IMG/VR virus record: IMGVR_UViG_2609459830_000011
Coordinates: 1 to 4,337 of that record
From: a virus
Lineage: Duplodnaviria > Heunggongvirae > Uroviricota > Caudoviricetes
Length of the DNA: 4,337 nucleotides
Strand: one strand, 5' to 3'
Shown here: positions 1 to 4,337 of the stretch, piece after piece
Layout of the letters: the number at the start of each line of letters is the position of its first letter
Position numbering within the stretch: position 1 is the first letter of the stretch
Program-made: the position numbers and the translations under genes
The notes under the pieces: generated by a model
The model's input: only the letters and a program-made list of their open reading frames with translations
What the model was told of the DNA's origin: nothing
Databases searched by the model: none

Positions 1-309
1 CCCCGGGGGCCCGGTTCCCCCTCCCGGCCCAGCCACACCTGTTTCTCCTTTCGGTCCCTGTGGGCCTGCCGGGCCTGCTGCCCCGGTGTCTCCCTTTGGA
101 CCCTGTGGACCTGTACTTCCTGTCAGCCCGGTCTCTCCCCGCTCTCCCCTGTCGCCTTTCGGCCCCTGCGGACCTGCCGGACCAGCATCACCTGCCGGTC
201 CCCGTTCGCCGGTTGCCCCGACAGGGCCGGTGTCACCGCGCTCTCCCTTATCACCCTTCGGCCCCTGAGGACCCGCGGGCCCCTGTTCCCCCTTTGGCCC
301 GGGAGGTCC
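1..309 (-). repeat. Collagen-like Gly-X-Y coding tract, at least 34 uninterrupted triplets (Stf aa 251-353+), with imperfect ~100-bp-period direct repeats
   Basis: Seen in sequence: translation reads [103 protein letters not shown] with Gly at every third residue. The DNA shows recurring near-identical blocks (plus ~48-77, ~155-183, ~255-285; e.g. cctttcggtccctg / cctttcggcccctg / ccttcggcccctg) encoding repeated GPQGPKG units. The tract continues past the window edge. Confidence 0.85.
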
Positions 310-1059
310 CACCACGGTGGGGATTCGGTTTACGGCCTCTTCCGCCGCTATCCTGCTTTGTTCCGCTGACTGTGCGCTTTCTGCTGACTCCCGGGCTTTT
401 TCTGCTGCGGTCGTTGCATCCCTGGCTGCATTACCGGCTGCACTTTCTGCCGTCTTTTTTGACAACTCAGCATCTGTTGCACTTTGTAATGACTCACTGG
501 CTTTTTGAGCGGCCGCAGAGGCCGAGGACGAGGACGCCTCCTCTGACTGCTTTGCAGCGGCTGCACTTTCTGCCGCCTGCCGGGCTGACTCCGATGCATC
601 CCCTGCTGAAGTGTCAGCATTTGCAGCGCTCTCTTCTGCCTGACTGGCTGATATGCCGGCATTCCTCGCTGACGTCTCCGCCTCTCCGGCATTCTTCTTC
701 GCCTCCTCAGCGTGACGCGCCGCTTCTTCCACCATCAGTTCAAAACGACGCAGTGCCTCCGGCCGGACGTCATCCTCCGACATGGCACCGAGAAAATCAT
801 TCAGCGTCCCCGGTTGAGAATCTTCATACACGGTGATGGTCCCGGCATGTGACGGAGGAAATCCCTCCACCAACAGAATGACGCTGTACTGACCGTACTC
901 AACATCCATGCTGTAACGTCCGGCTTCATCCGGATTTTCAGAGGCCACCGTGTTCACCACCACCGTGCTGCTGGTTCGTCTGGCCTTCAGCACAATGGTG
1001 CAGTTCTGTACTGGTTTTCCTGTGCCATCTTTAAGCACGCCAGAAATTTTTACTGTCAT
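1..1059 (-). CDS. stf: Side tail fibre protein Stf, N-terminal 353 codons (partial; 3' end runs beyond window position 1)
   Basis: Seen in sequence: reverse-complement translation from ATG (plus 1057..1059) is stop-free for 353 codons to position 1, starting [93 protein letters not shown]. This closely matches my recollection of the N-terminus of lambda Stf (orf-401), not verified by alignment. It is followed by an Ala/Ser/Glu-rich segment and then a Gly-X-Y tract. Position directly downstream of lom on the same strand matches lambda gene order. Absent from the ORF track because there is no in-window stop. Confidence 0.85.
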
Positions 1060-1210: not shown

Positions 1211-1810
1211 TCAGAAACGGTATCCGATACCAACAATAAATGCATCCGATCGCCAGTCGCCACTACCGGAACCTTCATAAGCAAGGTCAATGGTCACGGA
1301 TTCGGTCGGGTTAAACTGCACGCCAGCCCCCCACGCCAGAGACGTGTTGCTGTGGCGACCGTCATCACTTCCGGTCAGCACATCGTGCGTTTTCCCCTTG
1401 TTGTCAGTTACGCGGAGATAATCCCCGGAGAAAGTCGACACACGGCTGTAAGCCACACCCGCCATCGCATACGCGCTGAACCATTCATTCACGCGTACAG
1501 ACGGCCCCGCCATCACGCTGAACCAGCGGTTACGCACGGAATCTTCATGCCAGCGGGTATCGCTGTAGCGCGTTTTTTGCTCATCCTCAGCATTGGCATA
1601 ACTGAAGGACGTAATCAGCCCCAGCGCGTCCATAAACTCATAACGGTATTTCACGTTAATCCCGTTCAGATCATCACTACCGGGAACGTTCGTCGAGGCA
1701 TGGAGATACCCCGCGCTCAGCGTGGACTGATGTTCTGCTGCACTCGCTGGCGTAGCAGCGGCGACCTGCCAGACTACTGCGGACAAAATAACAGCACATA
1801 ATTTACGCAT
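1211..1810 (-). CDS. lom: Outer membrane protein Lom (Ail/Lom/PagC family 8-stranded beta-barrel), complete, 199 aa
   Basis: Seen in sequence: complete ORF from ATG (plus 1808..1810) to TGA (1211..1213). N-terminal signal-peptide-like segment MRKLCAVILSAVVWQVAAATPASA followed by AEHQSTLSAGYLHA. Internal motifs NGINVKYRYEF, SVMAGPSVRVNEWFSAYAMAGVAYSRV, AWGAGVQFNP, AYEGSGSGDWRSDAFIVGIGYRF and a C-terminal aromatic residue (F) typical of OMP beta-barrels. Closely matches my recollection of lambda Lom (not verified by alignment). Located between J and stf as in lambda. Confidence 0.92.
   Translation of the reverse strand: MRKLCAVILSAVVWQVAAATPASAAEHQSTLSAGYLHASTNVPGSDDLNGINVKYRYEFMDALGLITSFSYANAEDEQKTRYSDTRWHEDSVRNRWFSVMAGPSVRVNEWFSAYAMAGVAYSRVSTFSGDYLRVTDNKGKTHDVLTGSDDGRHSNTSLAWGAGVQFNPTESVTIDLAYEGSGSGDWRSDAFIVGIGYRF
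1739..1810 (-). other. Predicted Sec signal peptide of Lom (aa 1-24, cleavage likely after ASA)
   Basis: Seen in sequence: basic N-terminus (MRK), hydrophobic core (LCAVILSAVVWQVAAA), then ASA|AE consistent with an AxA signal peptidase I site. The exact cleavage position is an inference. Confidence 0.55.
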
Positions 1811-1877: not shown

Positions 1878-4337
1878 TCAGCTGATACTGATACCTGCTG
1901 TGGATTTTTTCATCACCACAACCAGCAGATCGCTGATACTGGTTGTTGGTGTCCAGTTATTCGCTCCTGATGAAGATACGGTGAATGTCAGTGTCAGCGT
2001 CCCCTGTCCGGCAGGCATATCTATAACTGAAGAAAATACGCCCTGAGCATCCGTCGTGGACTGATTAAAAATCTCCTGACCATTGCGGGTCACTCTTAAC
2101 CGGCAGGTTGAATACCAGTATGACTGTTGGTTATTACTGTTGAAATTCTCATGCTTACCACCGCGGAATAACACTGGCGGTATCATGACCTGCCGGTCAA
2201 ACTTCTGATCATCACTGATTCTTACCGTGATGGTGCCACTGGCATAAGTGCTCGTGCGGGGGAAAGACTTGCTGACCGTTTTGACAATATCGCCTTCAAT
2301 CTGGTTGGCTGACAGTTTCCCCTTAATCTGACAGTTCTCATTAATCGTGACGTTGTTGAGCGTCCCTGAGTTCGCATTCACACTGCCACTGATATCCGCA
2401 TTTTTCGCCGTCAGTCGCCCGTCCGGCGTCAGGGAAAACGTCGGGGGGTTGCCGGATGACGTGATACTCACCGCAAACAGTCGTTTCAGGAACACGTCGT
2501 TCATGAACAGCTGATTCCCCTGCGCCACAAATAACGGCGTGCTGTTGCCGCTCTCCGGATTTATCATCGCGATACGGTCAGCCAGCAGCAGTATGTTGCT
2601 CAGTGGCTGGCCATCAGTATCCTCAATCCCTGCACCAATCCCGGCCACATAGGGAATGCCGTCTTTCGTTTTTTGAACCTTCAGCATGTACAGCGCAGCC
2701 AGGTCATCATTTGTGTCCTTCTGCACGCGCTGTATCTGCTGTATGGTGGCGCTCTGGTTCTCCAGTGTTTTGTTGACCGTCTGTGTGATTTCATTGCGGG
2801 TTTCCGTGATGCTGGTCTTCATCTCCGCCATCTCATCTGCAAGCTGGCTGTTATCTATCAGTTCCCACAACCCCTGAGCCAGATGCAGTTTTCCTATTTT
2901 TTCCCGGAAAAATTCCAGATACCCTTCACCATCATTGCTGGGCTGCCCGCTGACTTCCACAAACGCAGATTTCCCCACCAGGTTGACGCTGCGCACGTAA
3001 AACCAGAAATCCTTCCCGGGCTTAATGTGCGGGCCGGATACACTCCACTGACTGCCGGTCCCCAGATAACGGGCAGAGGTTTCCACCTGAGATGTGTCTG
3101 CGATTTTTGCCTCCGAAAACCAGAATTCAAACTGTACCGTCGGGTCATATACAGCCAGTTTCGGGACCGCCGTTATCTGAAAATAGCCCGGTGTCAGCTC
3201 AATCTGTGACGGCGCTGCCGGTGCGGCAATCCGGAACGATACCGACGCCGGATCGCCCTGCTGCCCCCACGCATTTACCGCCCGGACTGTCAGCCTGTAG
3301 CTCCCCGGCGCCAGTTGCGTGAAGCGGTATGTGGTTTCCGTCGTCCGGGCCGTGCTGACCAGCCGCTCACTGCCGTCATCCGCGGCCACGGTCAGGCGAA
3401 GCATAAAGCTCACGCCCTTCACCACCTTCGGCGTGTCCCATTTCGCCTGTGCCAGATACTGACCGTCAGCTGCGCTCACCTCCACCGTCAGGTGCTGCAC
3501 TGCCGGAGGGATGACGCTGTTCAGGGTGCCTGACTGCGGCTCAAAGCTGGCCCCGTTATCCACGATGGCTTCCTTTTCCGGTACGTGCTGCACCGCCGTG
3601 ATGGCAAAGGTACCGTCCGTGTTTTCCCGGATGGAAACACAGCGGAACAGGCGACGACGCAGTGACGGCAGGGAGAGTCCCCATACACCGTATGTCTCCA
3701 CACCATCAGGCAGGGTGCTGACCTGTATCCGGTCCGGCGCGGGGTGTGCAGTGATGGCCACGCTCACCGGCTTACCGCTGCCGTTAATCAGGTTCACCGT
3801 GGCGGCACCGGTCTCCGGCAGGGTCACCTCACGGTCCAGCGTCAGGGTGCGGCTGGCGGCATCGATGGACAGGACACGTCCGCCGGTCATGGTCCCGGCA
3901 TAGTCGTTATCACAGATTTCAATAATGTCACCGGGTGTGTGACGCAGCCCCTGTGACCCGAGCGTGAAATCCACCGTCTGCGTTTCCAGCAGTCCGGTCT
4001 TTATCACCCACAGCCCGGCACGGTGGGCCTGACCGCGACTGGTGCAACCGAACGCATCCATCTTCAGCAGGTTGCGCCCGTAGCGCAGTATGGCTTCCGG
4101 GTCTTCCACCAGTTCCGTGGAGGTCTGCCAGCCGTTCTGCGGGTCGGTGTAATTCACCTCCACCGCCGTGTGGCGGTCCTTCAGGGCGCTGAAGCTGTAG
4201 CGAAACCCCACGCCGTTATCATCCACCACCACATCGCTGTTGGTGTACGGCCACACCACATCCGACTGGCGGTCCTGAACGAACGTCAGCGTCTGGCCGT
4301 TCCATACCGGCATACAGCGCATCGCCGAGCAGAAATC
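1878..4337 (-). CDS. J: Tail tip / host-specificity protein J (central tail fibre), C-terminal ~819 codons (partial; 5' end lies beyond window position 4337)
   Basis: Seen in sequence: the minus-strand frame is open from the window edge (4337) to TGA at 1878..1880. The first in-frame codons read [23 protein letters not shown], so the Met at 4322 is internal. Landmarks matching my recollection of lambda J (not verified by alignment): [51 protein letters not shown], fibronectin-III-like segment [86 protein letters not shown]. Ends GISIS. Confidence 0.93.

Follow-up and report, generated by a model that had tools for sequence, protein, structure and literature searches.

A lambda-type J gene 3' end with a receptor-binding tip of the A8/phi330 type, very probably directed to OmpC

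Receptor use by lambda-type J tips

Among the classical lambdoid phages, the J tip of HK97 recognizes LamB, the J tips of HK022, N15, and phi80 recognize FhuA, and phage 434 is the classical OmpC user. Adsorption of lambda itself, whose gpJ receptor is LamB, has been described by cryo-EM. Four distal loops of the trimeric Ig-like receptor-binding domain (RBD) enter the receptor trimer. The bases of the RBDs move apart, the beta-prism undergoes a twist, the alpha-helical shaft (assigned to lambda residues 809-861) flips, the FNIII strings dissociate, and the tail tip opens (PMC11101478).

Receptor data on J tips directed to OmpC come from lambda-based chimeras, in which natural E. coli gpJ C-termini replaced that of lambda gpJ downstream of residue 964, with an LPS-binding P2 chimera in place of the side fibre (Brodel et al., 2024; PMC11338833). 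The A8 C-terminus alone retargeted the lambda particles from LamB to OmpC, and it accepted both the K-12 and the EDL933 OmpC variants. In MG1655 delta-lamB delta-ompC supplied with plasmid OmpC-MG1655, delivery was 95% with A8, 1.9% with wild-type lambda, and 2% with 1A2 (source data of PMC11338833). The latter is another natural E. coli gpJ C-terminus sending lambda to OmpC, active with the EDL933 variant and not with that of K-12 (PMC11338833). In the source data of Extended Data Fig. 2 of the same paper, the values for 1A2 and A8 are identical in panels B (OmpC-MG1655) and C (OmpC-EDL933), which conflicts with the text, where 1A2 is active on EDL933 OmpC; the duplication probably arose from miscopying within the deposited spreadsheet or its stored text.

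OmpC dependence has also been reported for a complete phage, the Stx2a siphophage vB_EcoS_phi330 (PV189401; phi330 below), which lysed all tested Keio outer-membrane mutants (n = 54) except delta-ompC and formed plaques on delta-ompC again when Plac-ompC was supplied (PMC12502783). In its GenBank record (PV189401, 4779-8194), J is annotated as a 1042-aa product overlapping an upstream "hypothetical protein"; the gene was probably split by a frameshift or an assembly error in this Sanger-assembled record. Moreover, the A8 tip is represented in the PDB entries 9WCA and 9WCB, each with three chains named "A8 gpJ 713"; in 9WCB these are accompanied by three "Outer membrane porin C" chains. Judging by the chain names and counts alone, 9WCB would be a solved gpJ-OmpC complex. 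A literature search for a publication on the two entries found none.

Gene layout and domain series of the J fragment

The DNA analysed here (the window) is the whole stretch of 4,337 nt, with phi330 as its best DNA match (96.1% identity). It carries parts or all of three genes, J, lom, and stf, all on the minus strand and in the same order as in lambda (NC_001416), and the J-lom-stf neighbourhood characteristic of a lambda-type J was thus found from both ORFs and Pfam matches. The C-terminal part of J, the central tail fibre or tip attachment protein, occupies positions 1878-4337 (minus strand; 819 codons and a stop). Its start is off the window, and the N-terminal third of the protein, corresponding to lambda residues 1-340, lies beyond position 4337. 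The stop codon is at 1878-1880, and the minus-strand translation of 1881-2500 gives the final 206 residues of J. The C-terminal peptide quoted in the first-pass annotation, which named no strand, is found letter for letter at the end of this 819-codon frame.

Downstream of J, the lom gene (1211-1810, minus strand) encodes an Ail/Lom outer-membrane beta-barrel protein of 199 aa (Pfam Ail_Lom, E 2.5e-123). It is a full-length match to the family, yet the allele differs from that of lambda, to which it is 41% identical. Next comes the 5' part of an stf-like side tail fibre gene (1-1059, minus strand; Pfam phage_tail_N, E 7e-69, and Collagen, E 7e-15), which runs off the window. Its product begins with an N-terminal collar domain, followed by an Ala/Glu-rich helical stretch and then by collagen-like Gly-X-Y repeats, and it shares 74% identity with lambda Stf over its first 120 aa. 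The GC content of the collagen-like repeat zone reaches up to 0.67-0.72, and the composition of these repeats also gives rise to long antisense ORFs over them (e.g., 60-836, plus strand). On the minus strand, lom is flanked by two GC hairpins with T-runs, terminator-like by consensus match only: the first (1840-1859) follows the J stop codon and precedes the start of lom, and the second (1078-1107) lies between the end of lom and the beginning of stf. This arrangement would fit a moron-like insertion of lom. Apart from these two hairpins, tandem-repeat and promoter scans around the end of J gave nothing.

The J fragment is colinear with residues 341-1132 of lambda J (NC_001416), with 63% identity over 819 aa (BLASTP). 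Five Pfam families matched it above the cut-off (Phage-tail_3, Ig_J, Ig_J_second, Phage_Tail_Tip, and Ig_GpJ_C), and by this domain series the fragment is assigned to the lambda-type central tail fibre J. The similarity is distributed unevenly along the protein. The hub (lambda 341-600) is 72% identical and the FNIII/Ig domains (lambda 601-810) are 78% identical, with a maximum of 90-97% around lambda 641-730, the most conserved stretch of all; in the window, the Ig/FNIII-like domain pair lies at 2907-3533 (minus strand; fragment aa 269-477; Pfam Ig_J, E 3e-40, and Ig_J_second, E 1e-38). For its alpha-helical shaft (2637-2930, minus strand; fragment aa 470-567), the window J has an allele unlike that of lambda, only 30% identical to lambda 811-880 and 28 aa longer because of an insertion. 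This shaft is followed by the beta-prism "central straight fibre" at 2307-2636 (minus strand; fragment aa 568-677; Pfam Phage_Tail_Tip), which contains the graft-point stretch and is 70% identical over lambda 881-964, 77% over lambda 965-990, and 93% around lambda 943-972. Near lambda residue 990, corresponding to window positions of about 2306 and below, the identity falls sharply. The Ig-like RBD of the A8/phi330 type occupies 1881-2306 (minus strand; fragment aa 678-819) and shares 41% identity with lambda 991-1132, from which three loop-sized indels (4, 5, and 1 residues) also set it apart.

The first-pass annotation had described the C-terminus as unlike that of lambda J and the upstream regions as close to it, and had taken more than 90% identity over the last 250 aa as the mark of an ordinary LamB-specific type. 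The divergence of the C-terminus was borne out, the identity being 54-55% for the final 250 aa, 44% for the final 160 aa, and 41%, as given above, for the 142 residues of the RBD. The upstream closeness holds for most segments (70-78%) but not for the shaft, which is even more divergent than the tip and had gone unmentioned. The interval 1878-2500, singled out as divergent, is so from about 2306 down, but it also includes about 65 residues of the conserved fibre shaft.

The receptor of the tip

Fragment residues 696-819 matched the Pfam family Ig_GpJ_C ([quoted passage not shown]) with an E value of 3e-36. Together with the colinear alignment to the lambda RBD, this match supports a shared fold and mechanism, and by sequence the tip is classed within lambda's own RBD fold family, though diverged, and not as an unrelated tip type.

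The tip was compared with a reference panel of the J proteins of lambda, HK97, HK022, N15, phi80, and Gifsy-1. In BLASTP, the RBD had no significant similarity to the tips of HK97, HK022, N15, phi80, and Gifsy-1, the FhuA-type tips giving E values above 1, and for HK97 and Gifsy-1 J nothing significant was found past the shared shaft region. The panel alignment proposed in the first-pass annotation thus returned a tip homologous to that of lambda only. Since lambda alone has a homologous tip in the classical panel, similarity to the panel cannot assign the receptor. The following tip types were rejected: the FhuA type of phi80, N15, and HK022 (no tip homology, and lom instead of cor after J), the LamB type of HK97 and the OmpC type of Gifsy-1 (terminal domain not homologous), and the LamB-specific RBD of lambda (41% over the RBD against the mark of more than 90%). 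Outside the panel, the RBDs of the PhiR/ECOR temperate phages are 47-81% identical to that of the window; the paper naming these phages gives no receptor data for them (PMC13190303). A preprint on receptor prediction (10.64898/2026.04.02.716166) deals with GpJ of the Drexlerviridae type and calls the lambda tip not comparable.

Much closer relatives were found in the OmpC-directed J proteins. The J fragment and phi330 J are identical in 812 of 819 residues, including all of the last 187 aa. From the graft point to the C-terminus, 166 of the 168 residues are shared with A8 gpJ, the two differing residues being adjacent (PRT-ST-YASG in the window, PRT-NS-YASG in A8) and located in an RBD loop that is 4 aa shorter than that of lambda. 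The PDB chain "A8 gpJ 713" matched the last 250 aa of J with an E value of 3e-145, and the exact residue differences were read from this chain, not from the supplement of PMC11338833, the text of which is OCR-damaged (dropped letters, C/G swaps, and one apparent stop codon). The A8 DNA in that supplement differs from window positions 1878-2402 by 9 substitutions in 525 nt, several of which are OCR artefacts.

By its near-identity downstream of lambda residue 964, the tip is placed in the A8/phi330 type, and OmpC is assigned as the putative receptor on account of the 100% identity to the phi330 tip and the two-residue difference from the OmpC-retargeting A8. This assignment is supported by three independent lines that converge, namely the phi330 J, the A8 graft, and the PDB entry 9WCB. 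The expectation of the first-pass annotation that the receptor would differ from that of lambda thereby gains a named receptor. Positions 1878-2500 hold the 3' end of J in a lambdoid prophage of E. coli that resembles Stx phages, and the tip encoded there very probably binds OmpC, not LamB. For the exact copy in the window, the near-identical modules predict OmpC-dependent and LamB-independent adsorption and delivery, and we infer that this copy of J is functional.

A side tail fibre could in principle account for the OmpC dependence of phi330 when this is taken alone, with the J tip binding another receptor. Ur-lambda Stf does bind OmpC (PMC12617516), an stf gene is present just downstream within the window, and the phi330 knockout data by themselves do not separate J from Stf. 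The graft experiment, in which only J after residue 964 was altered and the side fibre was an LPS-binding P2 chimera, does separate them: delivery with A8 was OmpC-dependent and LamB-independent, so OmpC recognition belongs to the J tip and not to the side fibres. In addition, 9WCB combines a gpJ fragment with OmpC chains, and lambda forms plaques without side fibres (PMC12617516), but phi330 forms none without OmpC. Such a role of the side fibre is thus highly improbable. The same A8 result bears on the reading of the tip as an ordinary LamB-specific lambda-type tip, in which the differences from lambda would be neutral drift. This reading draws on the common Pfam RBD family and on lambda being the sole classical reference phage with a homologous tip, but it has to accommodate an RBD just 41% identical to that of lambda with three indels, a near-identical A8 tip that works without lamB and depends on the OmpC allele supplied (PMC11338833), and the plating of phi330 on all tested Keio outer-membrane-protein mutants but ompC (PMC12502783); it is almost certainly wrong.

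Binding of OmpC together with further outer-membrane proteins deserves somewhat more credit, although it is still unlikely. Gifsy-1 J binds OmpC, OmpX, and BtuB (PMC12312913), and additional low-affinity partners of the tip would be compatible with the evidence examined here. However, the Gifsy-1 tip is not homologous to that of the window, and among the 54 Keio outer-membrane mutants the plating of phi330 was lost on ompC alone (PMC12502783).

With OmpC as the receptor, adsorption can be pictured on the model of lambda and LamB. J would form a trimeric central tail fibre, the last ~140 residues of which are predicted to fold as a lambda-like Ig-like RBD, diverged and with three loop-sized indels that probably sit in receptor-facing loops. 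By analogy with lambda-LamB, the distal loops of all three RBDs would dock on the OmpC trimer, and binding would be relayed up the beta-prism and the alpha-helical shaft until the tail tip opens and the DNA is ejected. From the shared fold family and the upstream architecture, we infer the same relay with OmpC replacing LamB, so that triggering would proceed as in lambda.

There is a small chance that the ST/NS dipeptide and the native shaft, 28 residues longer, make the window copy functionally distinct from A8. They might, for instance, allow other OmpC alleles to be accepted or alter reach and triggering through O-antigen or capsule. An altered function is unlikely since phi330 has exactly the tip of the window and uses K-12 OmpC.

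Occurrence of the tip and comparison with described J proteins

The tip is widespread. In 44 phage records, mostly of Stx1a- and Stx2a-converting phages, its 161-residue sequence recurs with an identity of 95% or more, and related alleles occur at identities of about 82%, 78%, 63%, and 47%. At the DNA level, 1,507 complete E. coli genome records contain the tip with at least 95% identity, and a tip match of any kind was present in 2,943 of 5,426 E. coli genomes. Among the J tip alleles of E. coli prophages and Stx phages, this is one of the most common. The best matches to the window as a whole were chromosomes of O111:H8 and related STEC (96.6%). The long alpha-helical shaft allele, with its 28 additional residues, is common in Stx and lambdoid phages as well and assorts independently of the tip allele; the shaft thus appears as a separate mosaic block, typical of lambdoid mosaicism.

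As a discovery, the tip matters little, being a common and already studied variant: genetic work has shown OmpC to be its receptor, lambda-based delivery vectors have been engineered with it, and there is a deposited structure. Only the ST/NS dipeptide and the long native shaft go beyond what has been characterised. The value of the tip lies in annotation, where J genes ending in the A8/phi330-type module can be labelled OmpC-targeting, not LamB-targeting, and this label is relevant to host-range prediction for Stx-converting phages and to the spread of stx genes.

Compared with known systems, the window J shares with lambda gpJ (PDB 8XCJ/8XCK/8IYK) the hub, two FNIII/Ig domains, the helical shaft, the beta-prism, and the Ig-like RBD, as well as lom and stf as neighbours. 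It differs from it in the RBD (41% identical), in the shaft (30% identical, with 28 aa fewer in lambda), and in the receptor, which is LamB for lambda and OmpC for tips of the window type. In Gifsy-1 J, the upstream body is homologous to that of the window (69%), but the terminal domain has no detectable similarity. The FhuA-type phages phi80, N15, and HK022 are more distant, with an upstream body about 28% identical, unrelated tips, and cor downstream of J, where the window has lom and no cor. Of the two OmpC-directed graft modules, 1A2 differs in sequence from the window, ending in ...VVVMKKATAGITIS, and the window module is of the A8 type; A8 was examined as a chimera on the lambda shaft, in contrast to the window module, which sits on its native J with the longer alpha-helical shaft allele. 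The closest described system is phi330, which has the same J-lom-stf order as the window and a J protein differing by seven substitutions, all of them upstream of the RBD.
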